Source: an uncultured Candidatus Saccharibacteria bacterium (GTDB taxonomy: Bacteria; Patescibacteriota; Minisyncoccia; Minisyncoccales; Staskawiczbacteraceae). From it: DNA of 64,000 nt. How positions within the stretch are numbered: the stretch's first letter is position 1; each line of letters starts with the position of its first letter. Where the stretch lies: the NCBI GenBank assembly GCA_964366875.1, contig CAYIVF010000001.1:8123-72122 (forward strand). Direction: 5' to 3'. Shown one piece after another: positions 4,480 to 29,782 of the stretch. The notes under the pieces were generated by a model. The model was not told the DNA's origin. It made no database searches and saw only the letters and a list, made by a program, of their open reading frames with translations. The position numbers and the translations under genes were made by a program.

Positions 4480-5038
4480 TCATTGTCCTATCTAATCCTT
4501 CTTTGATAAAAAAATCAAGGGATTCTGCTGCTTTTTCAATTGTTTCGTTTATAATTTTTTGTTCATCTTCTGTAAATTTTTTAAGAACCAGTTTTTTTGT
4601 ATCTTGTATCTTGTATCTTGTATCTTGCGGTTTTATTCCGATGCGAAATCTGATAAGCCTGTCATTTCCAATGTTTTTAATTATACTTTCTACTCCTTTG
4701 TGTCCGGCAGAGCCGCGTTCTTTATTTATTTTTATTTTTCCTACCGGTAAATCTATATCATCGTGCACAATGAGTAAATTTGAAATTTGAAATTTGAAAT
4801 TTGAAATTATTTGCTTAACTGCTTTGCCCGAGTCATTCATAAATGTTTGGGGTTTTACCAAGACAATCTTATCCTCGCCAACCACGCCCTCCGAAACCAG
4901 TACCTCGGATTTTTTTTGCAGCTCAAATTCCGGAAAATCATTTTTCTCCGCAAATTTATCCAAAACCATAAATCCCACATTATGCCTTGTCCCTTCAAAT
5001 TTTTTGCCAGGATTCCCGAGTCCGACTATTATAATCAT
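4463..5038 (-). CDS. pth: Peptidyl-tRNA hydrolase
   Basis: 191 aa. MIIIVGLGNPGKKFEGTRHNVGF... is the canonical Pth N-terminus with catalytic His. Contains two 7-bp x4 tandem repeats. Confidence 0.9.
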   Translation of the reverse strand: MIIIVGLGNPGKKFEGTRHNVGFMVLDKFAEKNDFPEFELQKKSEVLVSEGVVGEDKIVLVKPQTFMNDSGKAVKQIISNFKFQISNLLIVHDDIDLPVGKIKINKERGSAGHKGVESIIKNIGNDRLIRFRIGIKPQDTRYKIQDTKKLVLKKFTEDEQKIINETIEKAAESLDFFIKEGLDRTMNEYNK

Positions 5039-5079
5039 ATTTATCTAATTTACCTTTTTTAACTTTATTTTTCAATTAT

Positions 5080-5931
5080 TTGCTTGAATTATTTCTCAAA
5101 AGGCGATATTGTAAAAAAAAGATGCTGAGTTTAAAATCAGAAAAATATTTTTTATTAATCGTTAAACCATATAATAATATGAATTCAAAAGAAATTGAGT
5201 CAATTGAAAAAAGATATTTTGAAGAGATTTATTTTTTTGTAGATAAAAATCTTTCGTTCTTCCTTGAAAGATTAAAATCAAAGAATGAAATAAAAAATGA
5301 TTGGCTAAAAATATTCAAAATAACAAGTAGGGCTGCATACAAAAAAGCTTCAGAATTAAATAAAGGCGCCGAAAGAGTGGTGCATAATTTATTTGGTCAA
5401 TATAGGTCATTTGCAGTTAATTCTTCGCCCATTGGTTCGGATTTAATGTTTGAAACTCCAGATGCTTTTATACATTTAGAAGTTAAAACTGCTACCGATT
5501 CTAATCCCGCAGATTTTAAAGGAAAAATACAAATAGCCCAAAATCAGACAACCTATGGAGTTAATCAGACAATAACAGGAAGTCGCTACCATTTTATACC
5601 TAGTTTACCTAAAATTTACTCAAACGGAAAAATCTGTTTGACTTATGTAATTCAAATAATACACGATAATGTAGAAGATTTACCCAAGATTATAATTTTA
5701 CTTTCAATACCCAATGGATTATTAAAGCGCACTTACGGTAATTGTATTAATTCCGGAAAACATTCGAAAAAATTAAACAAGTTAAAATCGAAAGGAGATA
5801 TAAGATTTTTATACAAGAAGGCTAAAAAATTCGAAAATTTAGAAAAAAAACCAAGTAGAATAAAAATTATTTATCCTCAAAGTTACTCTAAAAAATTACT
5901 TGAAGATTTTTTAGGACTGAAGGAATTATAA
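5080..5931 (+). CDS. Hypothetical protein; candidate Type II restriction endonuclease (PD-ExK-like motif). True start may be the internal Met at 5182
   Basis: 283 aa. Contains FETPDAFIHLEVKT (PD...ExK arrangement). Convergent with the adjacent DNA methyltransferase gene, 3' ends overlapping by 6 bp. Confidence 0.35.
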   Translation: MLELFLKRRYCKKKMLSLKSEKYFLLIVKPYNNMNSKEIESIEKRYFEEIYFFVDKNLSFFLERLKSKNEIKNDWLKIFKITSRAAYKKASELNKGAERVVHNLFGQYRSFAVNSSPIGSDLMFETPDAFIHLEVKTATDSNPADFKGKIQIAQNQTTYGVNQTITGSRYHFIPSLPKIYSNGKICLTYVIQIIHDNVEDLPKIIILLSIPNGLLKRTYGNCINSGKHSKKLNKLKSKGDIRFLYKKAKKFENLEKKPSRIKIIYPQSYSKKLLEDFLGLKEL

Positions 5932-7848
5932 TATTTTAATTTTATCACACCTTTTTTTTATAATATTTAGATAATCTTTTTGTAATTCTATACCAATTGA
6001 TTTTCTATTAAGTTCCCTTGCAACCTTTAAGCTTGTTCCACTTCCCACAAATGGATCTAAAACAATGCCGTTTACCGGACAGCAAGCCATTATAGCTTTT
6101 TTTGGTAGTTCTTCAGGAAATATTGCAAAATGGGAATCCTGTAATTTTCCAGTTGCAAAATCCCAAATATCACCAGGATTTTTACCTAACTCATGTGGTT
6201 TTACGGTTTGTAAAACATAATGCTCTTCAGTCATAATTTTATCGTATTTATCATCTTTAATTTCCAAAACTTTTTTTAGTTTTAACCAATCTTCTGGCTT
6301 AGGTAAACATCTTCCGCCTCTATCTGTCCTGAACCAATGTCCAGCAGTATCTTTATAGCCAAATATTTTATCTATTTCTTTACTTGAAATTCCTTTATTT
6401 TTTCTATAATTTTTTATGAAATGTATTATTTCAAGTTCTAAACTACTATCTATTTTGTGTTTTCTTTGTTTAGAATAAAATTCCCCATTAACAGATAATC
6501 TCGCCCCAGGCGAAGCGCCAAGATTTATTTTCTCAGTATTTTTAAATTTACCATTGTATTCATTTTTATTATTACTTGTTTTGTCTTTCCATTTTTCGTA
6601 TTCTTTGACAGATAGCGTTAATGGTAATTCTATTTTTTGATTATTTTTTTCCGTTAGTAAGATTTTTTGTTTAGAGGTTTTTTCTTTTTTCTCCCCATTG
6701 GTTTTATGTGCGATCCTAACAGAATCTAAATCAAAATAATATTCCGGTCTCAAATAACTATTAGGATTTTTAACAAATAAAAATATTGGTTCATAGGTGT
6801 TTGAAAATCTATCTTTTATCGACGAGGGCATTGCATTTGTTTTCCGCCATATTAAAACATTTCTTATTGCCCAACCATTTTTTTGCATTTCCATTGCTAG
6901 TCGAAAAGGGATCATTTGTAGATTCTTATCAACGTATTTATCTCCTATATTTAAAAAATATGCACCATCATCAGTTAAGACCCTTTTTAATTCATTTGTA
7001 ATGTCTATCATTTTTTTGATATATTCTTCTGGTGTTTTTTCATTGCCTATTTGTCCTCCCATTCCATAATCTCTTTGTCCCCAATAAGGTGGAGAGGTCA
7101 CAATGCAATTTATTGATTTGTCGGGTAGCATTTTTAACTTTTCTATAACATCACCAATAATCACTAGTGGTTCGGTATCTTTGGGTAAATCAATAAATTG
7201 ATGTTGGTTTGTTATTTTTTTTTGCAAAACCACTTTCTCTTTTAATTTTTCTAATTCTTCAAATTTTCTTATTATACTAACTACTTTTCCTTGTATTTCT
7301 AATTCTTTTACATAGATTGGTTTAAAATCAGGATTTGCCGGTTGTAGGCGAAATCCGTTTTTCTCTCTATAAATTTTTTTGAGAGTAGTTTCATTGCCAT
7401 TAATAAGCGCAACAACGCTTTCTCCGTTTTCTGCAGTGGATTGTCTTCTAATTATTACCTTGTCGCCGTTGAAGATACCCTCGTCAATCATACTATTGCC
7501 ACTTACCTCTAATGCAAAATTTTCACCGCTTTTGGATAGCAAATTTTTAGGAACTTTTATTTTCTCTGGAACATTGTATGTTATAAGCGGTTCGCCAGCT
7601 GTAATTGTTCCGAGCAAGGGAATCTCTACGAGTTCTGAATTTTTATTTTTTACCAATTCAATGGAGCGCGCCTTGTAATCTGTTTTTTCTAAATATTCTT
7701 TCTCTTTTAGTGTTTTTATGTATTGATGAGCTGTGGGTTTTTTTATTTTAAAATGCTTCGCAATTTCCTTGAGAGAAGGAGAGTAATCTTTTTTGCTAAT
7801 GTATTTTTTAATATAATCTAGAATTTGTTTTTGTTTCGGAGTTAACAT
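5926..7848 (-). CDS. Fusion protein: LexA-like repressor (HTH + S24 autopeptidase) joined to a beta-class DNA methyltransferase (SPPY motif, probably N4-cytosine or N6-adenine)
   Basis: 640 aa. Residues 1-200 align with LexA: IPLLGTITAGEPL (Ala-Gly cleavage site), EVSGNSM (catalytic Ser), TLKKIY (catalytic Lys). The rest carries motif IV (TSPPYWGQRDY) and C-terminal motif I (LDPFVGSGTS), i.e. the beta permutation of amino-MTases. Confidence 0.7.
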   Translation of the reverse strand: MLTPKQKQILDYIKKYISKKDYSPSLKEIAKHFKIKKPTAHQYIKTLKEKEYLEKTDYKARSIELVKNKNSELVEIPLLGTITAGEPLITYNVPEKIKVPKNLLSKSGENFALEVSGNSMIDEGIFNGDKVIIRRQSTAENGESVVALINGNETTLKKIYREKNGFRLQPANPDFKPIYVKELEIQGKVVSIIRKFEELEKLKEKVVLQKKITNQHQFIDLPKDTEPLVIIGDVIEKLKMLPDKSINCIVTSPPYWGQRDYGMGGQIGNEKTPEEYIKKMIDITNELKRVLTDDGAYFLNIGDKYVDKNLQMIPFRLAMEMQKNGWAIRNVLIWRKTNAMPSSIKDRFSNTYEPIFLFVKNPNSYLRPEYYFDLDSVRIAHKTNGEKKEKTSKQKILLTEKNNQKIELPLTLSVKEYEKWKDKTSNNKNEYNGKFKNTEKINLGASPGARLSVNGEFYSKQRKHKIDSSLELEIIHFIKNYRKNKGISSKEIDKIFGYKDTAGHWFRTDRGGRCLPKPEDWLKLKKVLEIKDDKYDKIMTEEHYVLQTVKPHELGKNPGDIWDFATGKLQDSHFAIFPEELPKKAIMACCPVNGIVLDPFVGSGTSLKVARELNRKSIGIELQKDYLNIIKKRCDKIKIL

Positions 7849-12056: not shown

Positions 12057-12090
12057 ATTAAAAATCGCCGCCGCGGCGATTTTTAATTTA
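12057..12090. terminator. Bidirectional intrinsic terminator (aaaaatcgccgccgcggcgattttt)
   Basis: GC-only perfect hairpin flanked by A-run and T-run. Confidence 0.7.
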
Positions 12091-12098
12091 TAAAGGGT

Positions 12099-12167
12099 TG
12101 ACATCAGCTTTTATAATTATTATAATTTAAAAATCATAGCACACCTTAACCAAGGAAAGGAGGTGAG
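12099..12167 (+). promoter_or_regulatory. Consensus sigma70 promoter (TTGACA-17-TATAAT) followed by consensus Shine-Dalgarno AAGGAGGTGA
   Basis: TTGACA 12099-12104, TATAAT 12122-12127, AGGAGGTGA 12159-12167. No convincing ORF immediately follows. Confidence 0.5.
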
Positions 12168-12600
12168 TATAAAAGCACGACACAAAAGCACGACCAATTC
12201 GTAGGTGGGTTGTCGGAAGGGCAGAGAAGAGGCACTGTTTTTACAGCTTCTCTAACCCCTTTGCGAAGGATCGACCCTATGTCCAAGAAGATCAAGCGTA
12301 TGTCGTCATTGACGCCCGAAGAAAGAGAGTTTATCTGTTCCCACGCGCTCCCTGATGGGGACACTGTAGGCGGCAATCATGTCTACCGTGTCCGCCAGCT
12401 CTTTCACGGAAAGTTTGGCTTTCGGGTCGGCGATGCGACGGTACGTCGTCTTCTGACACAGAAACACTGGCGCAACGGAAATGGTTCTGGCAGCGGGGCG
12501 CAGCCGCCTCGCTACAAGCGGCCGAGTGTTGCGCTTTTGATCCATTAGGGATCATCGCCTTTCTTTTTTCGCATGAGCTGCGGCAAACCCTGTCGTAGCT
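12150..12600. other. GC-rich island of about 450 bp with overlapping ORFs on both strands; possible degraded foreign gene or mobile-element remnant
   Basis: Abrupt rise in GC relative to flanks. Track ORFs 12210-12548(+), 12306-12545(-) and 12331-12555(-) overlap one another. The + frame has an HTH-like stretch (FGFRVGDATVRRLL). Confidence 0.3.
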
Positions 12601-12688
12601 CTCTCTTTTTTTTACAAAAAGAATAGGGGCTTGTGCTAAGCTGAAAAATATGCTAAAATGAAGAATAAAAATTTAAGAAAATAGAAAA

Positions 12689-18702: not shown

Positions 18703-18934
18703 ATTTAATATACAAAGTGGGGCTTGACCTGCTTTTTGCTTGGAGTAAAATATAGAAATGGCTTCGCCATTTATGTAATTAATCGCTCGGTTGGAATAAA
18801 AGTTTACTTTTATTCCTTCCTTACTCATAATTATAGTAATGCATTAGACCTCTTACTTAAAAATTTTTTATCCCGAAGATTTTTAAGTTTTAAAATTAAT
18901 AAAAGCCGTGAGGCATTTTTTTGTCCCCAATTTC

Positions 18935-21900
18935 ATGACACCAAGAAAAGAAAAAATAAAAAATCACATTGAAAAAGTACAGAAAAGAGATGGAAGAATC
19001 GCTGATTTTGAGCAGCAAAAAATAACTGACGCTATTTTTAAAGCAATCACTGTAGCTGACCAGGGCGATGGAGTAAAATCAAAAAGAGCGTCGGAAAAAG
19101 TTGCGCAAATTCTAAACAGAAGATTCAAAATAGGAGAAATCCCCAGCATTGAACAAATACAAGACATTGTAGAAGAAGTTTTGATACTAGAAGGCCTAGT
19201 TGATACGGCTCGCGCATATATTCTTTATAGAGAGCAGAGAAGAAGGATCAGAGAGATGGGTACGATTTCTGATGAGTCTTCAGAAAAAATTGATAGCTAT
19301 CTAAAAGAGCTTGATTGGCAGATAGCTGAAAACGCCAACATGACATTTTCTTTGCAGGGACTGAACCAATATGTGGGTTCATTCATTTCTAAAAAATATT
19401 GGCTAAACAAGATTTATCCAAAAGAAATAAGGGAGGCAGCAGCTTCAGAAGATTTTCATATCCATAATTTAGAGCTGCTTGCACCGTATACATTTTTCGG
19501 GAGGGAAGTTATAATTGTTAAAAAAAATAACAGAATAAAATTATCCTCCTTTAAAGATATATATGAAGAGATCGAACAACAAGAAATTTTACTGAATGAA
19601 AAAGACGGTGCTTGGGCAAAATACCCCGAGGGTTTATTTATACTAGATAATGATGGATGGGTTAAGGTTTCCCGGTTAGTGAGAAAAAATAAAGAGAGAG
19701 AAATGAGATTTATAAAATCTGAACAAGGTAGAAGCGTTATTGTTACCGATAACCATCCGTTTATAATAAAAAGAAACGATAAAGAAATAGAAATAGAATC
19801 TAAAGATGTAAAAGAATCTGACCTAATTTTTTCCGCCGATATCCGTTATCTTTTAAAAAATGAAGGTCTTTTTTCGAAGAAATATATATACTTGGCCGAA
19901 GAATTGATTAATAAAAAACACAATGAATTTTTTCTTGAGGGATTTGACTGGCAGGATTTTGTCAATAATTGGGGCGGGTCATTGCAGGCAAAGGGGACAC
20001 TTAGCGTTTCTAACGGAGCCAACAGCCTGGATAATTATTTTGAATTGACAGAAGATATTGGATATTTAGTCGGTATTTTCATAGCAGAGGGAAATTATCA
20101 TAGCTGGAAACTGCAGATTACCAACAGCGACGAAGAAATTATTAAAAAAATTCAAAGGATAGGCGCTTCTATCGGAGTAAGGTCATATATTAACGAAAAG
20201 GAAGGCGCCAAAGCAGTTACCTTTAATTGCAGTACTCTAAAAATGATTTTTGAAAAAGTTTTTCAGATAAAGGAGCTCAGTAAAAATAAAAATTTGCCGC
20301 CAGATATATTAACTTACAATACAGATTTTATAAAAGGCATTATCGCTGGCATCATTGACGGAGATGGCAGTGTCCGCTCGCATAAAAGCAAGCATGACGA
20401 TTCCTTGTCGCAGGTTTTGATTAGAGTCTCTTCGCGAACTTTGCTGGAACAACTATCAGTTCTTCTTCAGTTTTTCGGGATTGTGGCAAGAGACAGAATT
20501 AGTAGCGAAGATATTGGAAAGGTAAATATTTTTAGAGGGAAAGAAATTATACAAAATTATCCGATATACGGACTTTGTTTTTCAAAAAAGCAGGGAATTA
20601 ATTTTCCTTCATTTAAATATCAGAAAGCGGCTGCTACTTCAAAACATTGGAGGGCAGAAGAATACGGATGGAATAAAGTTTTAAATAATAAATTTACCAC
20701 AGTTGCTGATGAAGAAATTTTTGATATTACCACCGAATCTGGCACTTTTATTTGCAATGGACTGTTGGTGCACAACTGCGCGGGGTGGGACTTATACGAT
20801 TTTTTAAAAAGAGGATTTGGCGGAGTTTCGGGAAAAATAGAATGCAAACCTCCAAAACATTTGGGCGTGGCTTTAAGCCAACTGGTAAACGTTTTATATA
20901 CCTTGCAGGGAGAAACAGCGGGAGCCAACGCTGTTTCTAATTTTGATACTCTTTTAGCTCCGTTCATCAGGTACGACCATTTAACATACAAAGAAGTAAA
21001 GCAGGCAATGCAGGAATTTTTATTCGGCTGCATGGTGCCAACTCGCGTTGGTTTTCAAACCCCGTTTTTAAATGTATCTTTGGATATAAAACCGCCCACA
21101 TTTCTTGCAAAACAGCCGGTAATTATTAAAGGAGAACCGCAGAAAGAAACTTATGGCGAGTTTCAGGAAGAGATGAACATGTTTATCCGCGCATTTTATG
21201 AGGGTTTAATGGAGGGAGACGCGAAAGGCAGGCCGTTTACTTTTCCCATACCAACCGTTTCTATCGGTAAAGATTTTGACTGGAATAATTCTAATTTAGA
21301 TGCCTTGTGGGAAGCGACTGCAAAATATGGCATAAACTATTTTTCAAATTTTATACATTCAGATATGAGTCCAGAGGATGCTCGCTCGATGTGTTTGGAT
21401 TCCAAAGAAGAAATTTTGATAAGAAATTCCAAAAAAATTAAAAGAATGTCTATTAAGGAGACAGCTGATAACTATAAAGTTGGCGATTTTGATAGAGAAG
21501 GGTGGGCAGAATGCGAAAAGGAAAAAAACCTGGAAGTTTTATCTTTAAATCCAGACAACTTAAAAACAGAATGGTCTCCGGTAAAAAGATTTTTCAGAGT
21601 TTTTGATGATAAGGCTGTCGAAATTTTTACAGAGGATGGTAAAAGCGCTGTTTTTTCGCAAAAGCATCCTATGCCAGTTTTAACAGAGAGAGGTATTGAA
21701 ATGAAATGGTCAAAAGACATAGAAAAAGGAGATTATCTTCTTTCTATAAAAAAAGCAGAAGATGTTTTAGCAAAGGAGTATCAAAAAATAAATGACTTGG
21801 ACTTAGACAATGATTTGTCGTCTATTTTAGGATATTTTATTGCCGACGGAAATTATCTTTTTGAAAGTAGGAGAAGATATAAACATTATGGAGAACCAAG

Positions 21901-24793
21901 AGGGATGCAGTTTACATTTAAAACTGGAGACAAAGAAAACATAAAAACAATAAAAGGTTTAGTTAAAAAAGTATTTGGCATAGATTGTAAAGAAAAACAA
22001 GACCCAAGGTACAATACTTATTATTTATATATTTATAATACAGAGCTTGCAAGAAGGTTGCATAATGCAGGATTTAAGAAATACGGCAGATTACCTCAAG
22101 TCATATTTAATTCTCCCATAGAAGTTATCAGAAAATTTTTAGAGTTTCATTTTAAGGGTGATGGTTATAAAAAGAGGGGTGAAATTCATATCAATGATTT
22201 GGAACTATCAAGAGATTTAGTTTTATTATATTCTTTGACCGGTCAACCAGTGACCTATAAATTAAGGAAGAACAGCCAGGTTATACGTTTACAACATTCA
22301 AAATCTAAAATAAAAAAGAATAATGGCTGGTTAAATAACCCAATTCTATCAGAAAGAGTGCCGGGGTGGATGGGATTTTCAACATTTAAAGTGCCCGGTC
22401 TTACAAAATCGAGAATGGTAGGATTTGATGTATTAGAAAAATATAATGCGCACACAGAAAATAGTCTAAAAATTAAAAATAGCGACATTTATGTTAGCAG
22501 AGTTAAAAATGTAAGCACAAAAAATTATAAAGAATTGAAAGAGTTTTATGATGTAGAGTTGGAAAAAAATCATTTATTTTTGCATTCCTTGGGACAAGTG
22601 TCTTTTAATTGTTGCCGGCTTCGTTTAGACAACAGGGAACTTTACAAAAGAGGCGGCGGATTGTTTGGTTCGGCCCCCTTAACCGGTTCAATCGGGGTTG
22701 TTACGATTAACATGCCCAGGATTGGATATTTATCAAAAACTAAAAAAGATTTTTTTGAAAGATTGGGCCACTTGATGGATTTAGCAAAAGAAAGTTTGGA
22801 AATTAAAAGAAAGGCGCTGGAGAACTTTATGGATAAAGGCCTTTATCCTTATTCTCGCCACTATTTAGACGGAGTTAAGCTTTTAAGAAACTCATATTTT
22901 GGAAATCATTTTTCTACTATCGGGCTGATAGGAATGAATGAAATGCTTTTGAATTTTCTAGAAGAAAACATAGCTTCAAAAAATGGCAAGAAGTTTGCTT
23001 TAGAAGTTTTAGATTTTATGAGAGAGAGGATGATAAAATATCAAGAAGAAACAGGCAATTTATATAACTTGGAGGCGACTCCGGGCGAAGGAACAAGCTA
23101 CAGGCAGGCAAAAACAGACAAAGAAAAGTATCCGGATATTATTACGGCAGGCACCGAAGAGGTTCCATATTATACGAATTCAACTCATTTGCCGGTGGAT
23201 TATACTACAGATCCCTTTGAGGCGTTAAAACTGCAAGATGAACTTCAAACAAAATATACTGGCGGCTGCATAGAGGGGGGAAATAAGGTTTTAACAGATA
23301 AAGGATTGTTGCTCATTGAAGATATTGTGAAAAATTTTGATGAATTAAAACCTATCAAAGCGTTAAGCTATAACAAAGACCAAAAAAATAGCGAATGGGA
23401 TAAAATTTTGGAAGCAGTAAAAATTGATGTAAAAAAACATAATAAAATCAAGATAAAAGGAGAAAAAAACTTAGATATTGTTACATCTGATTGGCATCCT
23501 TTTTTTGTTCTGAAAAGATTTAAGCCAAATCCCGCTTGCCCTATTTGCCACACAGAAACATTTACTCTTAAAGGATTTGCTGGTCATATTAGATGGTATC
23601 CAGATTGCGGTAGAAAATATCAGGATTTTCCCAAGTACCATGTAATAGAAAAAAGAGCAGATGAATTAAAGGTGGGCGATTATATCCTGCAGAATTCATA
23701 TAATTTATATCCTGAAAAAGAAACAGAGCTCAATAATGATTTAATGTGGCTCATTGGATTTTTTATCGGTGACGGCTCTATCTCAAAATATATTGATAAT
23801 AGGGGCGGAAACAATTTAGAGAGGCATAAAATTAGGTTTTTTAGCGAGCACAAAGAAGCATTAAATAAAATAGTAGAAATCCTTAATAAATATTTTTCTG
23901 CTGAAGTAAAAATTATTAAAAACGATAAAAGAAGCGAAAAACTTTTAGAGGTTGCAAGTTCTAAAAAAGATATAGTAGATTTCTTTTTCAAATATGGATT
24001 TTGGGCAGGTGAAAAATCCAGCCGCATATTTATTCCTGATAAAGTGAAAAACAATATCAATAAAGAAAATATTTTTTCTTTATTATCTGGTTTAGCAGAC
24101 AGCGATGGGCATATAAGCAAACGTGATGGAGATTTTGAATATTATTCTATTTCCCAAAAATTGGCTGATGATATTTTAGAAATATGTTCTATTGCCGGAA
24201 TTATGTTCAGCAAGGCTATAAAAAAGACTAAAAGAAAAAACGAATTAGACATCTGGAGGATAAGAATACCCGCCTATGAAGTTACGAAAATAAAATCCCA
24301 CCTAACAAACACTATTCATCTTTTAAGAATTAAAGAGAATTTATCAAACAGAAAGAAACGTTATTTGCCCGTTGTGAGAGTAAAAGAAGTTTCTAAAGTT
24401 GACGTAAAAGATAATCAATTTTACGACTTGATGACAGAAAATAACCACAATTATTTGGCAGGAAAAGATAGTTTAGTATTTGTCCACAATACCGTCTGCC
24501 ACTTGTTTTTAGGAGAGAAAATTTCTGACCCCCAAATGGCAAAAAACTTAGTCAGAAAAGTTTTTGAGAAATTCCATTTGCCGTATATAACGCTTACACC
24601 AACTTTTTCAATTTGTCCTACGCATGGCTATTTATCAGGAGAGCACTTTGAATGCCCGCAATGTACGGTAAAGCAGCCCTGCGAGGTTTATTCAAGAGTA
24701 GTGGGGTATATAAGGCCGGTTCAGCAGTGGCATAAAGGCAAAAAGCAAGAATACAAAGAAAGAAAAGAGTATAAGATGCCAGCTGCAGTATAG
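18935..24793 (+). CDS. nrdD: Anaerobic (class III) ribonucleoside-triphosphate reductase interrupted by three inteins
   Basis: Track ORF 18908-24793 (1961 aa); start more likely MTPRKE at 18935. ATP-cone N-terminus; extein segments match NrdD blocks (HIHNLE, CAGWDL...KPPK, TPF, GGGLFGS...IGVVTINMPRI, YYTNSTHL, C-terminal CxxC...CPxC glycyl-radical/Zn region). Estimated extein total about 720 aa. Confidence 0.85.
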   Translation: MTPRKEKIKNHIEKVQKRDGRIADFEQQKITDAIFKAITVADQGDGVKSKRASEKVAQILNRRFKIGEIPSIEQIQDIVEEVLILEGLVDTARAYILYREQRRRIREMGTISDESSEKIDSYLKELDWQIAENANMTFSLQGLNQYVGSFISKKYWLNKIYPKEIREAAASEDFHIHNLELLAPYTFFGREVIIVKKNNRIKLSSFKDIYEEIEQQEILLNEKDGAWAKYPEGLFILDNDGWVKVSRLVRKNKEREMRFIKSEQGRSVIVTDNHPFIIKRNDKEIEIESKDVKESDLIFSADIRYLLKNEGLFSKKYIYLAEELINKKHNEFFLEGFDWQDFVNNWGGSLQAKGTLSVSNGANSLDNYFELTEDIGYLVGIFIAEGNYHSWKLQITNSDEEIIKKIQRIGASIGVRSYINEKEGAKAVTFNCSTLKMIFEKVFQIKELSKNKNLPPDILTYNTDFIKGIIAGIIDGDGSVRSHKSKHDDSLSQVLIRVSSRTLLEQLSVLLQFFGIVARDRISSEDIGKVNIFRGKEIIQNYPIYGLCFSKKQGINFPSFKYQKAAATSKHWRAEEYGWNKVLNNKFTTVADEEIFDITTESGTFICNGLLVHNCAGWDLYDFLKRGFGGVSGKIECKPPKHLGVALSQLVNVLYTLQGETAGANAVSNFDTLLAPFIRYDHLTYKEVKQAMQEFLFGCMVPTRVGFQTPFLNVSLDIKPPTFLAKQPVIIKGEPQKETYGEFQEEMNMFIRAFYEGLMEGDAKGRPFTFPIPTVSIGKDFDWNNSNLDALWEATAKYGINYFSNFIHSDMSPEDARSMCLDSKEEILIRNSKKIKRMSIKETADNYKVGDFDREGWAECEKEKNLEVLSLNPDNLKTEWSPVKRFFRVFDDKAVEIFTEDGKSAVFSQKHPMPVLTERGIEMKWSKDIEKGDYLLSIKKAEDVLAKEYQKINDLDLDNDLSSILGYFIADGNYLFESRRRYKHYGEPRGMQFTFKTGDKENIKTIKGLVKKVFGIDCKEKQDPRYNTYYLYIYNTELARRLHNAGFKKYGRLPQVIFNSPIEVIRKFLEFHFKGDGYKKRGEIHINDLELSRDLVLLYSLTGQPVTYKLRKNSQVIRLQHSKSKIKKNNGWLNNPILSERVPGWMGFSTFKVPGLTKSRMVGFDVLEKYNAHTENSLKIKNSDIYVSRVKNVSTKNYKELKEFYDVELEKNHLFLHSLGQVSFNCCRLRLDNRELYKRGGGLFGSAPLTGSIGVVTINMPRIGYLSKTKKDFFERLGHLMDLAKESLEIKRKALENFMDKGLYPYSRHYLDGVKLLRNSYFGNHFSTIGLIGMNEMLLNFLEENIASKNGKKFALEVLDFMRERMIKYQEETGNLYNLEATPGEGTSYRQAKTDKEKYPDIITAGTEEVPYYTNSTHLPVDYTTDPFEALKLQDELQTKYTGGCIEGGNKVLTDKGLLLIEDIVKNFDELKPIKALSYNKDQKNSEWDKILEAVKIDVKKHNKIKIKGEKNLDIVTSDWHPFFVLKRFKPNPACPICHTETFTLKGFAGHIRWYPDCGRKYQDFPKYHVIEKRADELKVGDYILQNSYNLYPEKETELNNDLMWLIGFFIGDGSISKYIDNRGGNNLERHKIRFFSEHKEALNKIVEILNKYFSAEVKIIKNDKRSEKLLEVASSKKDIVDFFFKYGFWAGEKSSRIFIPDKVKNNINKENIFSLLSGLADSDGHISKRDGDFEYYSISQKLADDILEICSIAGIMFSKAIKKTKRKNELDIWRIRIPAYEVTKIKSHLTNTIHLLRIKENLSNRKKRYLPVVRVKEVSKVDVKDNQFYDLMTENNHNYLAGKDSLVFVHNTVCHLFLGEKISDPQMAKNLVRKVFEKFHLPYITLTPTFSICPTHGYLSGEHFECPQCTVKQPCEVYSRVVGYIRPVQQWHKGKKQEYKERKEYKMPAAV
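19502..20776 (+). mobile_element. Intein 1 in nrdD with LAGLIDADG homing-endonuclease domain (N-terminal boundary uncertain)
   Basis: Ends ...NGLLVHN followed by Cys+1 (CAGWDL). Block B-like TDNHPF. LAGLIDADG motifs IGYLVGIFIAEGNY and IKGIIAGIIDGDGS. The first residue is not the expected Cys/Ser. Confidence 0.6.
21392..22609 (+). mobile_element. Intein 2 in nrdD with LAGLIDADG homing-endonuclease domain
   Basis: Begins CLDSKEEILI after ...ARSM; ends ...VSFN followed by Cys+1 (CRLRLD aligns with NrdD GCRSF). LAGLIDADG motifs ILGYFIADGNY and KFLEFHFKGDGY. Confidence 0.65.
23267..24490 (+). mobile_element. Intein 3 in nrdD with LAGLIDADG homing-endonuclease domain and an internal zinc ribbon
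   Basis: Begins CIEGGNKVLTDKG after ...KYTGG; ends ...SLVFVHN followed by Thr+1. LAGLIDADG motifs LMWLIGFFIGDGSIS and LLSGLADSDGHIS. Cys cluster CPICHTE...CGRK. Confidence 0.65.
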
Positions 24794-24806: not shown

Positions 24807-25529
24807 ATGATAATCGCTGGTCTCCAAAAAACAACTTTAATTGATTATCCAGGCAAAATAGCCTGCACGGTTTTTTTGGCTGTTTGTAATTTTCGTTGCC
24901 CGTGGTGCTATTCGGGGGAGCTTGTCTTGCCCGAAAAAATTATAAAACAACCAAGAATACAGGAAAAAGATTTTTTTAATTTTTTAAAAGAAAGACAAGG
25001 CCTTTTAGATGCGGCTGTAATTTGCGGCGGAGAGCCAACAGTGAATAAAGATCTGCCAGCTTTTGTAGAGAAAATAAAGAAAATAGGCTTTTTAGTAAAG
25101 CTTGATACAAATGGTTCCAATCCGGAAATGCTAAAAGATTTAATCAAAAGAAACTTGATAGATTATGTGGCAATGGATATAAAAACAAGTCAAAAGTCAA
25201 AAGTCAAAAGTCAAAAGTTATTGTATGAGTCGATTATGACAGATGGGATTACAATGAATAAAATACGAGAAAGTGTAGATTTTTTAAAGAAGGGTTTGGT
25301 TGATTTTGAGTTTAGGACAACCGTAGTAAATACAATCCACAAAAAAGAAGATTTTTTAGAAATTGCCAAATGGATAGGCGGCCAAAATGTAAAATATTAT
25401 TTGCAGAACTTTGTGCCGGAAAAGACAATTGACCCAGAATTTGAAAAAGTAAAACCATTTGGCAAAGAATTCTTAGAAAACATTGCAAAAGAAATTTCTC
25501 CTTATTTTAAAGTTTGCCAGGTAAGATAA
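24807..25529 (+). CDS. nrdG: Anaerobic ribonucleotide reductase activating protein (radical SAM)
   Basis: 240 aa. CNFRCPWC (CxxxCxxC radical-SAM cluster motif), glycine-rich SAM site GGEPT; directly downstream of nrdD. Contains a 7-bp x4 repeat (25188-25216). Confidence 0.8.
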   Translation: MIIAGLQKTTLIDYPGKIACTVFLAVCNFRCPWCYSGELVLPEKIIKQPRIQEKDFFNFLKERQGLLDAAVICGGEPTVNKDLPAFVEKIKKIGFLVKLDTNGSNPEMLKDLIKRNLIDYVAMDIKTSQKSKVKSQKLLYESIMTDGITMNKIRESVDFLKKGLVDFEFRTTVVNTIHKKEDFLEIAKWIGGQNVKYYLQNFVPEKTIDPEFEKVKPFGKEFLENIAKEISPYFKVCQVR

Positions 25530-25585
25530 CCTTTTAGTTTTCGTAAAAGTAAAATAAAAGAGCCTCCTGCGAAAAAATTTCGCTG

Positions 25586-25640
25586 AAGGCTCAAGGTGTC
25601 AAGAGAGACAAGTCCTCAAGACTTCAAGGCTCAGAACTTC
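25586..25640 (-). repeat. Array of five CTTGA motifs (coding-strand sense) in the 3' end/3'UTR of GC-rich gene A
   Basis: ggctcaaggtgtcaagagagacaagtcctcaagacttcaaggctc has TCAAG every 8-9 bp. Similar array at 27150-27212. Confidence 0.5.
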
Positions 25641-26386
25641 CGAGTGGACGAGACGCCCAAGAAGTCGTAGGGGGAGTCACCCCAGCCGCCGCTGACACCG
25701 AGACCCTCCGAATCGAAGCGGCCGACGCTGACACGGCCGCCGCCCGAATCCACAGAGGATGTGCGGACGTAGATGTGCTCGAACAGCCGTTCGCCAGTAG
25801 CCAGGTAGTGGCCGATGATGGTATAGACCATCACTTGAGCACTGGGCACTTCATCGTCCTTGCTGAGCAGTGCCTGCTGCTCTTGCCAGTTCTGCGAAGT
25901 GGAATTGTCCACTGGGGTCTTGCGAACCAACTGCCAAGTAATTTCGCCGTGCTTTTTGGAAAATGACTTCTTGTTATAGCAGTCCTGATTGTAGAACAAT
26001 CCCTTGTCCTGCACCTTGCCCCGGATTTCAAGGATCGAGAGCGTGAACACTGCCACGAGCACGTGCGTGTCCTTCGAGTGCCCGAGCACTGCCTCGGAGA
26101 ACGGAATCTCCGAAAGAGCTGCGAATTGCTGGCGGATTGGATTGACCCCGAAGTGCTTGATGGCTTTTTCGACTCCGAAGAAGTTGCGTCCCATAATCTC
26201 ACGGGCACGCTTCTGACTGGTCGTTGGTTCGAATCCGCCGCTAATGGCAAACTTTGCCAAACGACCGACAAATTCGGGATTAGAATTGACCCGAGTGATG
26301 ACAGCATCGGCATCATCGCCTAGGGCTGTGAGAAACTGGTGCCCGGCAGCGTACACGCTACCACTTTCAATCTGTGTCCATTTCAT
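25631..26386 (-). CDS. Hypothetical protein A of a GC-rich paralogous pair (unknown function)
   Basis: 251 aa. Strong RBS AAGGAG 6 nt upstream of ATG. GC much higher than flanks. Paralogous to gene B (shared segments N.EFVGRLAKFAISGGFEP / NEEVGSSYGYLSGYKP; ERLFEHIY...SGGG / ERLQHYD...SDGGDG). Confidence 0.55.
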   Translation of the reverse strand: MKWTQIESGSVYAAGHQFLTALGDDADAVITRVNSNPEFVGRLAKFAISGGFEPTTSQKRAREIMGRNFFGVEKAIKHFGVNPIRQQFAALSEIPFSEAVLGHSKDTHVLVAVFTLSILEIRGKVQDKGLFYNQDCYNKKSFSKKHGEITWQLVRKTPVDNSTSQNWQEQQALLSKDDEVPSAQVMVYTIIGHYLATGERLFEHIYVRTSSVDSGGGRVSVGRFDSEGLGVSGGWGDSPYDFLGVSSTRKF

Positions 26387-26659
26387 GACATTCTCCTTTG
26401 CCGTTAACTCTTGCGAGCGATCGGCTCTGGATATTCTGCAAACGTGCAGTTACGGTCTATCTCGGAATGAGACGAGCGGTTTACCCCTGTTTTTCAGGGA
26501 CAAAACGCTCGCCTCATATTTCTGAACCATAATTTCAAAGAGCTCCCCTTGTATATTTCTATTATAACAAACCATATGAAAATGTCAAGTTTTTAGAGGC
26601 ATTTTTTATTTTAATAATTTTTAAAATAATAATTTGTGGTATTATAAAAAATATAAACC

Positions 26660-26902
26660 ATGATGACTCCGTCAAAAATACTTTTTTATTTTTGCATTTC
26701 ATTTATTGTGGGAATATTTTTAGAGTCAATTATTAAAATTCCCTCAATTTTTATTTGGGGGATTTTAATTTTTGCAACTTTAATTATTTTTATTTGCCTG
26801 CTTTTGTCCATCCTTATCACTGGAAGTAGAGGTTTACTTTCTATATTTGCAGAACTATATCCTCGCATTCCTGTATTTTATGCAGTAGCACCAAGTTTTT
26901 GA
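26660..26902 (+). pseudogene. Duplicated comEC promoter/5' fragment (first ~50 codons of ComEC) without the rest of the gene
   Basis: 26669-26810 is nearly identical to 28339-28481 (MMTPSKILFYFCISFIVGIFLESIIKIPSIFIWGILIFATLIIFICLLLS vs ComEC N-terminus); similarity decays on both sides. Confidence 0.6.
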
Positions 26903-27094
26903 TGAAACCCAGACCTACTCTAGATAAAAGCAAGCAGTATCTCCTAAATCAGCTCGCTCTCGGAAACCTTAATCGCCAAGATTCTGGCTGTTTTCTCTTT
27001 TAAGAGAGATTTCGGCGTTAGCAATCCTTGAACTGCCAAACATTAGCCTACTTTCGTTTTTTATTATACTAAAAAATACAATTATTGGAAGTCA

Positions 27095-27160
27095 GTGTAA
27101 AAAAAGAAGGGGTTGCTTGCATTGTTAGTGCAAGACAATCCCTTTTTGTCGCCGACTTCA
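27095..27160. terminator. Bidirectional terminator-like hairpin (aggggttgcttgcattgttagtgcaagacaatccct flanked by A-run/T-run)
   Basis: Nested stems gggg/ccc and cttgca/tgcaag with aaaaaaa upstream and ttttt downstream. Confidence 0.5.
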
Positions 27161-27212
27161 AGAAATCAAGTGTTAATGGCTCAAGAGAGCCAATGACTCA
27201 AGATTTCAAGAG
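27150..27212 (-). repeat. Array of five CTTGA motifs in the 3' end/3'UTR of GC-rich gene B
   Basis: gacttcaagaaatcaagtgttaatggctcaagagagccaatgactcaagatttcaagagtc. Confidence 0.5.
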
Positions 27213-28080
27213 TCAGACTGCGGGAGGAAGGCGGAGGCCGAACCATAGCTGCCGTCGGCATTGCTAATCCAGCGCGCGCCGAACCTGATCTTGCCATCGT
27301 CGAACTTGAAGAAAGGCGCGAGCCCGAACTGACCATCACCCCCGTCAGAAAACTCAGCACCAGCGCAGTCGATCCAGAGATCGTCGTAGTGCTGTAAGCG
27401 TTCCGGATGCGTCAGAAGCATGCAGGCGACCGCGAAGGGATCGAGACCGAACTGGTAAGAGCTCATGACCTTGCGTGCCCTTCGCACGGACTTGCCAGCG
27501 TGGAGCTTGCCGAACTGGCAGGCAACAACAAGAATGTCATAGTCCTTCTGCTCGTTGCCGAGCTTGTCAAAGGCTTTGACGTTCTTTTGATGCTGACGCA
27601 GGTACTGCGGACCAAGCTTGCCCTCGCGGTAGTTGTAGAACTTGCCGTCGCGGGTTTGCTTGATGAGGTCAAGGACCTTTTGCAGTGCCTCGCCGTAGGT
27701 CTGAGCGATCTTCTGCCACCTTGTGATAGCGAACCACCCCTCGGCATTGGCTGGAAGCGGCTGTTCTGCCAGCTTCTCATCGGCGAACCCGACGCCCGAA
27801 ATTAGCTGACGCAGGCGGTTGGTCTGCTCGGTGATGCCCTTGGGCTTGTAGCCCGAGAGGTAGCCGTAGCTGGACCCAACCTCCTCGTTGGCGAACTGGT
27901 TGGATACCGAGAGCCTCTGAATGGAGGCCACGATGTCGGCTTGGAACACGTCGCCGTTCGCGAAGAGCTTCTGAAGCCCATCCTTGTCGAGATTGACTTC
28001 GGTGAGCGCCTTGTCCCCGGCGTCCTCGACAAACCTTTTGTACTGCTTGACCTGACCGGACGTGATCGACAATGTCGTCA
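27206..28080 (-). CDS. Hypothetical protein B of the GC-rich paralogous pair
   Basis: Track ORF 27206-28147. Likely start MTTLSIT (complement of 28078-28080), preceded by AAGGAG at a 7-nt spacing. High GC; paralog of gene A. Confidence 0.55.
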
Positions 28081-28297
28081 TCGTCAAACTCCTTTTTCCT
28101 TGAGGAATACACTCGAGATTTCCAGAATTCCGCTGGAACGGACTCATCCTCCTTTAAGGCGAGTATTAAAAACACTAACATTTAGTCAATATTCTTAATA
28201 CTCGCCTCAATTTATTCTATTAAAGAACAATACCTATATTATATCGAGAACTAGAGTTTATGTCAAGGGGAGCGTATCAAATTGATAATTATATGAT

Positions 28298-29782
28298 TTG
28301 GCACGTTTATGCTATAAAATAATAATAATCATGATAACCCCGTCAAAGATATTATTTTATTTTTGCATTTCATTTATTGCCGGAATATTTTTAGAGTCAA
28401 TTATTAAAATTCCCTCAATTTTTATTTGGGGGATTTTAATTTTTGCAACTTTAATTATTTTTATTTGCCTGCTTTTGTCCAAGCGATCACTCGGACAAGA
28501 GAAAGGTTTTATTATTGGCTTCTGCCTGCTGTTTTTAATTTTTGGCATTTTGCGCATGCAGATTTCAGAATTCAATATTGCAAGCGATAAGCTGAGCAAA
28601 TCTAACGGCAAAGGACAAATTGTTTTGACTGGAATTATTTCTAATGAACCGGATATAAGAGACACCTATCAAAAAATAAAGGTAAAAACTAGAGATAGCA
28701 CGATTTTAGTAGCAACAAATCGTTATCCTGAATATAAGTATTTAGACAAAATAAAGCTAACGGGAAAGTTGGAGACGCCCGCAGAAACAGAAGAATTCAG
28801 TTATAAAAACTATTTAATAAAAGACGGAATTTATTCTGTGATGAATTTTCCGAAAATTGAAGCGGCGGGCAAAGCTCGTGGAGGCCCGTCCTCCACGGTT
28901 TATGCTGGAATTTTGTTTTTAAAGCAAGGACTAAGAGAAAGTATCCGCCATAATTTTTTACCTCCACAGAGCTTTATATTAGAGGGCACTATTTTGGGAG
29001 ACAATGGAGCTATGAGTAATGATTTAAAAAATAAGTTAAACATTACAGGACTTCGTCACATTATAGCGGTTTCCGGCACACACGTAGTTATTTTAGGGTC
29101 AATTATAATGTCCCTTTTGTTGGCTATGGGATTTTGGAGAGGGCAGACATTCTATATTGCCATAATTTTTATTTGTTTATATGTCGCGCTTACGGGCTTG
29201 CCTTCTTCGGGCGTAAGAGCAGGAATTATGGGCGGACTCTATCTTTTAGCCCAAAAATTGGGAAGGCAGAGTTCAGGTTTAAGGGTGATAGCAATGGCTT
29301 GCACAGTAATGCTTTTGATTAACCCCTTGCTTTTACTTTACGATGTCGGCTTCCAGCTTTCTTTTTTAGCAGTAATGGGCCTTATATATCTAGAACCCTT
29401 TTTGAAAAAGATTATGAAAATTAGCATTATTTCAACAACTTTTGCAGCCCAAATCTTTACTTTGCCCATAATGGTTTATAACTTCGGCAATATATCTTTT
29501 GTTTCGCCCATCACCAATCTTTTGGTTTTGCCTGTTGTTTATTGGCTTATGGTTTTTGGATTTTTATCTTCTTTGTTGGGAATTGTATCGCAATTTTTAG
29601 GCTGGATTTTTTTTATACCTTGCTGGTTTTTGCTCACTTATTTTATAAAAATAATAGATTTTTTTTCTCAGCTGGGGGCGTTAAAAACGATTGAAAATGT
29701 TCACTGGATTTGGCTGTTTATCTCTTATTTACTAATCGGTTTTTCTGTTAGATTTCTTAATAAAAAATATTCCCAATATTAA
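28298..29782 (+). CDS. comEC: ComEC/Rec2-family DNA internalisation channel (competence domain only, no metallo-beta-lactamase domain)
   Basis: 494 aa polytopic membrane protein; DUF4131-like N-terminus; competence-domain motifs (RHIIAVSGTHVVILG, GFQLSFLAV). Confidence 0.75.
   Translation: MARLCYKIIIIMITPSKILFYFCISFIAGIFLESIIKIPSIFIWGILIFATLIIFICLLLSKRSLGQEKGFIIGFCLLFLIFGILRMQISEFNIASDKLSKSNGKGQIVLTGIISNEPDIRDTYQKIKVKTRDSTILVATNRYPEYKYLDKIKLTGKLETPAETEEFSYKNYLIKDGIYSVMNFPKIEAAGKARGGPSSTVYAGILFLKQGLRESIRHNFLPPQSFILEGTILGDNGAMSNDLKNKLNITGLRHIIAVSGTHVVILGSIIMSLLLAMGFWRGQTFYIAIIFICLYVALTGLPSSGVRAGIMGGLYLLAQKLGRQSSGLRVIAMACTVMLLINPLLLLYDVGFQLSFLAVMGLIYLEPFLKKIMKISIISTTFAAQIFTLPIMVYNFGNISFVSPITNLLVLPVVYWLMVFGFLSSLLGIVSQFLGWIFFIPCWFLLTYFIKIIDFFSQLGALKTIENVHWIWLFISYLLIGFSVRFLNKKYSQY

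Follow-up and report, generated by a model that had tools for sequence, protein, structure and literature searches.

Between nrdG and comEC, a 64-kb stretch of contig CAYIVF010000001.1 (the window, to which all coordinates refer unless a locus is named) carries two GC-rich genes, A and B. We put the probability at roughly 0.8 that both are target genes of a clade of diversity-generating retroelements (DGRs) specific to Patescibacteria (also called CPR, for Candidate Phyla Radiation), and that the machinery of the element has been lost from the window; the locus would be a known kind of system, common among ultra-small bacteria of groundwater, in a decayed state. This reading draws on the family membership of the two genes, the loss of the reverse transcriptase (RT), Avd and the template repeat (TR) from the window, a retained RNA leader, a junction at which the element is cut off, and variation of the nrdG–comEC interval among relatives. 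The source genome is represented here by the window, and L numbers label the loci compared with it.

In an intact element, a small separate transcription unit would consist of a ~240-nt leader followed by the TR. RT and Avd would copy the TR with errors at adenines, and the cDNA would overwrite the last ~125 nt of the target gene, its variable region (VR). Module B keeps its promoter, gene, VR, CTTGA array, terminator and whole leader, and the TR, avd and RT would have been removed at a microhomology of ~14–20 nt. Module A would be a second, unrelated target module that lies directly against nrdG without a DGR remnant.

Genes A and B belong to families of DGR variable proteins

Searches with the two proteins returned 1094 homologs of A (58–77% identical) and 1521 homologs of B (64–76% identical) from Patescibacteria metagenomes. 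Pfam, PHROGs, NCBIfam, PADLOC and PDB sequences gave nothing meaningful, the PADLOC hits being only weak partial SIR2 matches (E 0.001–0.03). The original prediction, made from the DNA alone, had left the gene family unrecognized; the homology search places both genes in large Patescibacteria (CPR) families of DGR variable proteins that include TR-, bAvd- and RT-linked members.

In L001, which carries a homolog of A, and in L002, which carries a homolog of B, the gene directly adjoins bAvd and RVT_1 genes. Its final 123–130 nt recur ~500 nt downstream at 88–89% identity, and all or almost all of the mismatches between the two are adenines in the downstream copy. Because adenine-biased mismatches are the DGR signature, we take the downstream copy to be the TR and the gene 3′ end to be the VR. 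Across a survey set of 29 A-family and 80 B-family loci, dozens have a TR with 85–100% of the mismatches at adenines and an adjacent Avd and RT. The copies of the gene 3′ end are 110–133 nt long and 80–94% identical, with adenines accounting for, e.g., 17/17, 23/23 and 21/21 mismatches. They accompany A homologs in L001, L011, L018, L019, L021, L030, L038 and L120, and B homologs in L002, L041–L047, L050–L053, L062, L070–L072, L077, L082, L090, L095 and L114–L118. The TR is either downstream of the target gene or upstream and divergent. An RT gene was found in 34 homologous loci, and about half of the sampled family loci have no local RT.

The alignments of both families are strongly conserved, and hypervariable columns occur only within the last ~40 residues, where they are scattered. 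Compared with heterologous TRs (the cognate TR being absent from the window), the window VRs mismatch mainly at TR adenines, which account for 20/30 mismatches with the L011 TR and 9/11 with the L021 TR. Against the L011 TR, 67% of the adenines are mismatched (20/30 A's) versus ~11% of other positions, with changes relative to the TR such as AAC to GGC or CGC. By this indirect comparison the window VRs carry a footprint of adenine mutagenesis. Family membership and C-terminal variability together identify A and B, as judged from their sequences, as genes for DGR variable (target) proteins.

A and B had been described as divergent paralogs with collinear shared blocks. We reject paralogy: BLASTP of A against B gives an E value of 0.11 and three hhalign set-ups give probabilities of 8–32%, and all that the two have in common is one short motif, S-x-(K/R)-RARE(I/V)M-x-x-N-x-FG (hhalign). 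The RTs of L001 and L002 are highly similar over their full length, and the 5′ untranslated region (UTR) of gene A is homologous to those of both families. It is more apt to describe A and B as members of two target families, both served by a single DGR lineage.

The target genes are GC-rich relative to their flanks, with a mean excess of 14.7 points and an average gene-body GC content at third codon positions (GC3) of 0.66 across 71 distinct family loci. The RT and avd genes of the same cassettes are AT-rich like the host (35–39% GC). No strand-specific avoidance of adenine was seen in the target gene bodies.

Missing machinery and a leader-like RNA remnant

The RT, the avd gene and the TR/VR pair of a complete DGR are all missing from the window. 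The L001 and L002 RTs found no match in its 64 kb (tblastn), no Avd was detected by tblastn or with a hidden Markov model (HMM) of 38 sequences searched against the six-frame translation, and neither VR has a second copy within the window.

Between the terminator of module B and X1, an extra copy of the comEC start (Table 1), lie 290 nt that are 70–84% identical to the noncoding stretch between terminator and TR in >50 loci (blastn). A leader profile built without the window sequence (nhmmer) has its sole window match at 27050–26811 (E 6.4e-49, model positions 2–237), and a −10 box lies just upstream at ~27063–27068. In the consensus structure from an alignment of 24 leaders, 39/48 predicted pairs show compensatory changes. 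Rfam holds no match to the leader; nothing in the window reached the gathering score, and a single weak sub-threshold match to a miRNA family in the region is due to chance. By eye, a stretch to the right of X1 had resembled an Avd pseudogene (LMKPRPTLDKSKQY; tblastn E 6). This candidate was rejected, as the Avd HMM found nothing and the stretch is part of the leader.

All 41 of 41 TR-bearing loci have the leader, just upstream of the TR (e.g. L001, L002, L011, L042, L045 and L108). Its orientation tracks that of the TR and not that of the target gene, which argues that leader and TR form a separate RNA gene. We read the leader as the likely 5′ domain of the clade's DGR template RNA. In the window it is complete but the TR is absent: the template RNA gene stops ~15 nt short of the expected TR. 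Truncated leaders recur elsewhere, with 12/44 RT-less loci keeping between 50 nt and the full length, so decay from the RT side appears to be recurrent. With the diversifying machinery gone from the window, both VRs would be frozen unless a DGR elsewhere acts in trans.

A repeated comEC start and a microhomology junction

The original prediction reported a repeat of the comEC promoter together with the first ~50 codons. The codons are indeed repeated, but the "promoter" part is poorly conserved and identity drops upstream of the ATG. Copies X1 and X2 are 93% identical over 165 nt; the right ~100 nt are identical and the left 65 nt 88% identical, a split that suggests a crossover or conversion tract. 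The repeat has a unit-like periodicity of 1582–1671 nt, and X1 reads into the leader as an 80-aa pseudo-ORF (open reading frame; 26660–26902).

At the right end of X1, the minus strand reads ...CCAGTGATAAGGA-TGGACAAAAGCAGGCAAATA-AAAATAATT across the junction. Intact leaders, such as that of L001, read GGATG-AAAGCTGGCAAATA and then enter the TR. The shared ~14–20 nt are the antisense of comEC codons ~44–50. Because the leader 3′ end matches antisense comEC, we interpret the joint between X1 and the DGR remnant as a microhomology junction that removed the TR, avd and RT. It points to illegitimate recombination or deletion and not to site-specific regeneration of comEC.

On the most economical reading, the locus would have arisen in two steps. 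A B-type DGR would have come to lie beside comEC together with a duplicated comEC 5′ segment; either DNA that carried this segment integrated through a single crossover, or the duplicate was produced by illegitimate recombination with the help of homology. A microhomology-mediated deletion would then have taken the rest of the duplicate along with the RT, avd and TR, leaving X1 as a 165-nt remainder. We give even odds to a duplication formed without a dedicated recombinase, whether the route was recombination (homology-assisted or illegitimate) or a Campbell-type integration with a later deletion. A dedicated recombinase is not indicated: tblastn with two serine recombinases and Pfam searches of 10 neighboring window proteins found none near the locus, and the sole sharp junction is a microhomology that lies within the DGR RNA gene.

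In L001, L011, L005 and L102, whole DGR cassettes (target, TR, avd and RT) are bracketed by 56–116-nt direct repeats of host tRNA or gene 3′ ends, and no integrase was found inside these cassettes. The repeats are reminiscent of X1/X2 and would fit a single-crossover-type integration. As a general rule bracketing was rejected, since repeats were bracketing in 9/49 loci versus non-bracketing in 7/49, which is not a clear enrichment.

The nrdG–comEC interval varies among relatives

The gene order around the locus (ftsA, ftsZ, nrdD, nrdG, then comEC, a DUF6938 gene and a glycosyltransferase gene) is one of housekeeping genes and is syntenic with relatives. The interval is empty in L121 (ComEC 84% identical to that of the window; the nrdG stop overlaps the comEC ATG, TAATG), in L125 (69%; nrdG and comEC overlap), in L126 (67%; 100-nt spacer) and in L122 (71%; ~180-nt spacer). 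L124 (ComEC 70%) has one B-superfamily target gene in the opposite orientation, 42% identical to B and 60% GC, with an array present. L069, from Nealsonbacteria (ComEC 54%), has one B-type gene in the orientation of the window, with the most similar array and terminator. The L124 and L069 genes belong to different subfamilies, and neither RT nor TR was found near them.

This comparison across related genomes bears out the proposed insertion hotspot: the interval is empty in four relatives, holds one target gene in two and holds two in the window. Its content differs between genomes, so the uniform content that would speak against a hotspot was not found. We regard the interval as truly variable, since relatives have zero or one target gene and the window two.

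L124 has a further orphan target gene, so that its two (594–1376 and 4914–5807) occupy two housekeeping junctions, ftsZ–nrdD and nrdG–comEC. The gene at ftsZ–nrdD belongs to the A family and still has a leader start downstream. The arrangement in L124 suggests that this gene neighborhood may offer several preferred landing sites. The L122 spacer (6692–6872) has a higher GC content and long inverted repeats, CGCTTGGCAACAAACT...AGTTTGTTGCCTCGC, and could represent either a small mobile element or a footprint.

CTTGA arrays lie in the 3′ flank of VRs

Each gene is followed by an array of CTTGA motifs (TCAAG on the plus strand), and clusters of this motif occur in the whole 64 kb only at 25591–25628 and 27158–27210. 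The count of five motifs per gene holds, array A having four exact copies and one CTTGT and array B five. The original prediction had left the arrays unrecognized. They are no local oddity but the conserved VR 3′ flank across this DGR clade: at least four YTTG[AGT] motifs lie within 100 nt past the stop codon in 72% of 106 loci, versus 2.9% of random 100-nt windows from the same loci. Among 38 complete DGR loci, at least four motifs follow the VR in 31/38 and the TR in 0/38.

An alignment of 16 A-type arrays shows nearly invariant CTTGA cores and variable spacers, with the 5-bp inner hairpin held by compensatory changes. The array was also modeled as one long imperfect hairpin with CTTG facing CTTG (RNAfold); this fold was rejected, as pair counts support the inner 5-bp stem only and the outer part is mostly unpaired. 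Across 16 A-family loci the terminator helix of module A is retained through compensatory changes (90.6% of cells paired). Array plus hairpin might be a cis signal that marks the VR, and not the TR, as the cDNA recipient, a counterpart of the hairpin/cruciform of phage BPP-1. Its placement and its VR/TR asymmetry make the array the best candidate for such a signal; we are evenly divided on this role.

After many B-type arrays the terminator hairpin contains GGGGTTATCCACA...TGTGGATAACCCC, an inverted pair of perfect DnaA-box-like 9-mers (TTATCCACA). The pair occurs in L002 (6935–6965), L046, L082 and L092, and also in L087, L097 and L100; the hairpin of module B in the window is without it.

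Gene structure, expression signals and assembly support

The window has 37% GC and contains two sharp GC-rich islands (55–60% GC) at ~25.5–26.5 kb and 27.1–28.2 kb, each consisting of one minus-strand ORF. Both predicted genes are present, with the upper coordinate of gene B corrected from 28080 to 28081. The strong ribosome-binding sites (RBSs) ascribed to them are there as well, with AAGGAG 7–8 nt ahead of the ATG in both, and their 5′ UTRs are 150–165 nt long. With the perfect promoters listed in Table 1, A and B are, by their sequence signals, real and strongly promoted genes and probably expressed.

The 5′ UTR of gene A (26387–26560, minus strand) is homologous to 5′ UTRs of A- and B-family loci (L069, L063, L002, L001 and L054) and shares the 22-mer CTTTGAAATTATGGTTCAGAAA with L069. 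That of gene B had no match in other loci by blastn. A GAGGCGAG hairpin opens both 5′ UTRs in the window.

Over all junctions and both C-terminal regions, three replicate assemblies, which come from the same groundwater site, show no difference from the window. This base-for-base agreement between independent assemblies covers the repeats, where mis-assembly had been a concern, and we therefore consider the features real and not an assembly artifact.

Elsewhere in the window, the nrdD ORF (18908–24793, plus strand) encodes 1961 aa versus 716–723 aa in L121, L122, L124 and L126. Given this difference in length, the window nrdD carries insertions that total ~1200 aa and are presumably inteins; in L121 the intein is in nrdG instead (Pfam Intein_splicing). 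At 12090–12610 (plus strand) lies a third small island rich in GC (56%), with a perfect TTGACA-17-TATAAT promoter, an AGGAGG site and an ORF of ~89–112 aa ahead of a T-run. The island bears no relation to A or B and had no match in Rfam.

Table 1 Features of the nrdG–comEC interval and direct repeats that bracket DGR cassettes in four compared loci
Feature	Coordinates	Strand	Description and basis
nrdG, radical-SAM activase	24807–25529	+	Pfam Radical_SAM; left border of the variable interval; abuts comEC in syntenic L121 and L125
Module A terminator	25551–25592	−	Terminator-like hairpin and T-run at the end of module A; sequence
Array A	25591–25628	−	Five units ~8–9 nt apart; inner 5-bp hairpin GAGGR-CTTGW-YCCTC
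Gene A	25631–26386	−	251 aa; A-family DGR variable protein; VR approximately the last 40 codons, 25634–25755
Gene A upstream region	26387–26588	−	RBS, ~165-nt structured 5′ UTR and promoter; sequence and promoter scoring
Gene A RBS	26393–26398	−	AAGGAG
Gene A promoter	26561–26588	−	Perfect TTGACA-16-TATAAT; sigma-70 consensus 12/12
X1, extra comEC start	26646–26810	+	~15 nt upstream plus first 50 codons; not continued into comEC
Microhomology junction	26791–26810		TGGACAAAAGCAGGCAAATA on the minus strand; common to antisense comEC and leader 3′ end
Putative DGR template-RNA leader	26811–27051	−	Complete 5′ structured domain; blastn (>50 loci), nhmmer
Module B terminator	27099–27142	−	Terminator-like hairpin and T-run at the end of module B; sequence
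Array B	27158–27210	−	Five units, of which the first overlaps the stop codon; most similar to the array of syntenic L069
Gene B	27206–28081	−	291 aa, MTTLS start; B-family DGR variable protein; VR ~27209–27340
Gene B upstream region	28082–28266	−	RBS, 5′ UTR and promoter; long hairpin 28154–28210 in the 5′ UTR
Gene B RBS	28089–28094	−	AAGGAG
Gene B promoter	28238–28266	−	Perfect TTGACA-17-TATAAT; sigma-70 consensus 12/12
X2, functional repeat copy	28317–28481	+	Runs into comEC
comEC	ATG at 28331, gene to 29782	+	Continuous with X2
L001 bracketing repeat	5580–5635/8695–8750		56 nt
L011 bracketing repeat	4762–4835/7772–7845		74 nt, 97% identity
L005 bracketing repeat	5664–5778/9460–9574		116 nt
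L102 bracketing repeat	3875–3977/7046–7146		103 nt

Alternative explanations

Several points weigh against decayed target modules with a VR-marking array. The 64-kb data are compatible with a DGR in another part of the genome whose TRs match A or B. Neither the arrays nor the leader show decay, as would be expected after a very recent loss or under continued use. More than one order of events (A first, B first, insertion or deletion) would fit the locus. The role of the array is read from its position alone, and the asymmetry between VR and TR is equally expected of an mRNA 3′-UTR element. Arrays with at least four motifs occur in 79% of RT/TR-linked loci versus 45% of well-flanked orphans, a comparison that is confounded because the array-less orphans are mostly the most divergent homologs. 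On a rival reading A and B are live remote targets, with one or two complete DGRs elsewhere in the genome supplying RT/Avd and matching template RNAs in trans and still diversifying both VRs. Non-adjacent or remote targets are documented for other DGRs (PMC5758913, PMC8144416); arrays, terminators and the leader of module B are fully intact, and the frequency of family loci without a local RT is in keeping with such targets. However, A and B would each require a TR of its own, given that their VRs are unrelated. The TR of module B was deleted at this very locus, the VRs are identical in three replicate consensus assemblies, and the Nucleic Acids Research survey found remote targets only outside its CPR set (PMC5758913). 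On balance we consider action in trans unlikely. The array might also be an RNA-level 3′-UTR element that serves mRNA stability, termination control or regulator binding and has nothing to do with cDNA homing. Such an element would explain why the array sits between stop codon and intrinsic terminator, why compensatory changes maintain its inner hairpin as they would in a structured RNA, why it persists in orphan genes (those of the window, L069, L014 and L015), and why it is absent after the TR, which is not an mRNA 3′ end. Yet the array is tied to DGR-type members and missing from the most divergent RT-less homologs, its conserved cores, variable spacers and unsupported outer helix look more like repeated binding sites than one fold, and a VR-specific downstream element is required for homing in BPP-1 (PMC3240598). 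We consider a function confined to the mRNA less likely than not.

Repeated site-specific insertion, or cassette exchange that regenerates the comEC 5′ end, was the mechanism favored in the original prediction. In an integron- or integrase-like scheme of this kind, modules would enter at the comEC 5′ end, the comEC start would be brought along or regenerated, and the CTTGA array with its hairpin would be the recombination site. The different target genes in the window, L069 and L124, the empty interval in four relatives and the four bracketed cassettes agree with it. The X1 junction does not: it is a microhomology joint that lies within the DGR RNA gene and cuts off the template region, and it is not at the array. 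As the prediction had noted, no integrase is seen; tblastn of two serine recombinases against the window and Pfam searches of 10 proteins from the nrdG/comEC neighborhood found no recombinase, and the bracketed cassettes contain none. Furthermore, each module has its own consensus promoter, unlike integron cassettes, the L124 gene is in the opposite orientation, and bracketing repeats are in no clear excess. Site-specific entry is thus improbable. An artifact in the form of an assembly chimera at the 165-nt repeat, or else a tandem duplication of recent date with diverged gene copies, has in its favor the unit-like periodicity and the replicate contig L010, which breaks exactly at the repeat end (26810). 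Two other independent assemblies nevertheless span both repeats and all junctions at 100% identity, the X1–leader junction occurs in no simple parent, and A and B represent two distinct, widely distributed families. Each is 60–77% identical to hundreds of other proteins and not detectably so to the other. A recent tandem duplication is excluded because A and B are unrelated, in agreement with the prediction on this point, and we regard an artifact of either kind as extremely improbable. Retron, type III toxin–antitoxin (TA), integron, IS110-like and IS200-like readings were rejected on anatomy and because their defining proteins were not found.

A broader scheme would combine the decayed DGR with its landing site. 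The CTTGA array would be a recipient signal read by RT/Avd. Target modules, whether or not the RT came with them, would pass between related cells as DNA and integrate by recombination via carried host sequence, making hotspots that need no dedicated recombinase. Avd is a pentamer, and the arrays typically have five units. If the scheme were true, direct repeats of the X1/X2 type would be left behind and sites like nrdG–comEC would become cassette hotspots. We offer it tentatively and consider it rather doubtful.

Significance and comparison with known systems

Two families with >1000 homologs each, the named ones mostly "hypothetical protein", can now be labeled DGR variable proteins. The locus documents the decay of a DGR, in which RT, avd and TR are deleted and a strongly promoted target gene survives, and it indicates that, in reduced genomes, one fixed position on the chromosome can acquire and lose target genes. 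We know of no settled account of how DGR cDNA finds and replaces the VR, and all knowledge of target recognition that we are aware of was gained with a single phage element. The cis signal of this clade is a different one, strongly conserved and easy to mutate, with CTTGA units that flank VRs and, at four or more motifs, never TRs. The clade also has a covariation-supported leader RNA without an Rfam family; leader and array are both open to study in a reconstituted system. In the accessible CPR-DGR literature, a body that does not cover the key 2017 CPR paper, we found no mention of the CTTGA array specific to VRs, of the leader RNA that precedes the TR or of the GC excess of target genes.

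Resemblances outside DGRs are partial. Type III TA systems (ToxIN-like) have ~36-nt tandem RNA repeats upstream of the toxin gene with a terminator between; the arrays here are 5-nt cores ~8–9 nt apart and downstream of the gene, and the weak SIR2 matches were all that PADLOC returned. Integron cassettes (attC) are likewise short units of one gene apiece that are stacked at one site, with an imperfect palindromic element behind each. They differ in that each module here has its own strong promoter and terminator, orientation differs between genomes and the palindrome is not where the junction lies; the 10 scanned neighboring proteins included no IntI, and the attC core sites (RYYYAAC/GTTRRRY) were not part of the search. 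The remote DGR targets of Treponema, Legionella and cyanobacterial lineages (PMC5758913) are also target genes without an adjacent RT. They are matched to a TR in the same genome, whereas the window has none and the TR of module B is visibly deleted.

The closest counterpart is the DGR clade restricted to CPR bacteria, which is cellular and has targets without recognizable domains (PMC8144416; PMC5758913). This lineage ("DGR clade 2" of Roux et al. 2021, PMC8144416; the "CPR set" of Wu et al. 2018, PMC5758913) shares its hosts with the loci studied here (Nealsonbacteria, Staskawiczbacteria, Paceibacterota). Its elements are likewise cellular, with a C-terminal VR and targets that lack a recognizable domain or transmembrane segment, and the loci homologous to ours carry bAvd, RVT_1 and TR. 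The window differs in having only the targets and a leader without a TR.

For the array, the nearest parallel is in BPP-1, whose homing requires a hairpin/cruciform that stands just past the VR and is lacking after the TR (Guo et al. 2011, PMC3240598). Both systems have, directly 3′ of the VR but not after the TR, a cis element that includes a structure-conserved hairpin. The window genes have such a structured element, in a form unlike the BPP-1 hairpin. That of BPP-1 is one 7–10-bp GC stem with a GRNA tetraloop, 4–34 bp after the VR (PMC3240598), whereas this clade has 4–6 CTTGA units ~8–9 nt apart, a small inner hairpin and a long terminator hairpin ~45–60 nt past the stop codon. The template RNAs also appear to be built differently. 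The functional RNA spacer of BPP-1 lies 3′ of the TR, and the conserved RNA domain of this clade lies 5′ of it.

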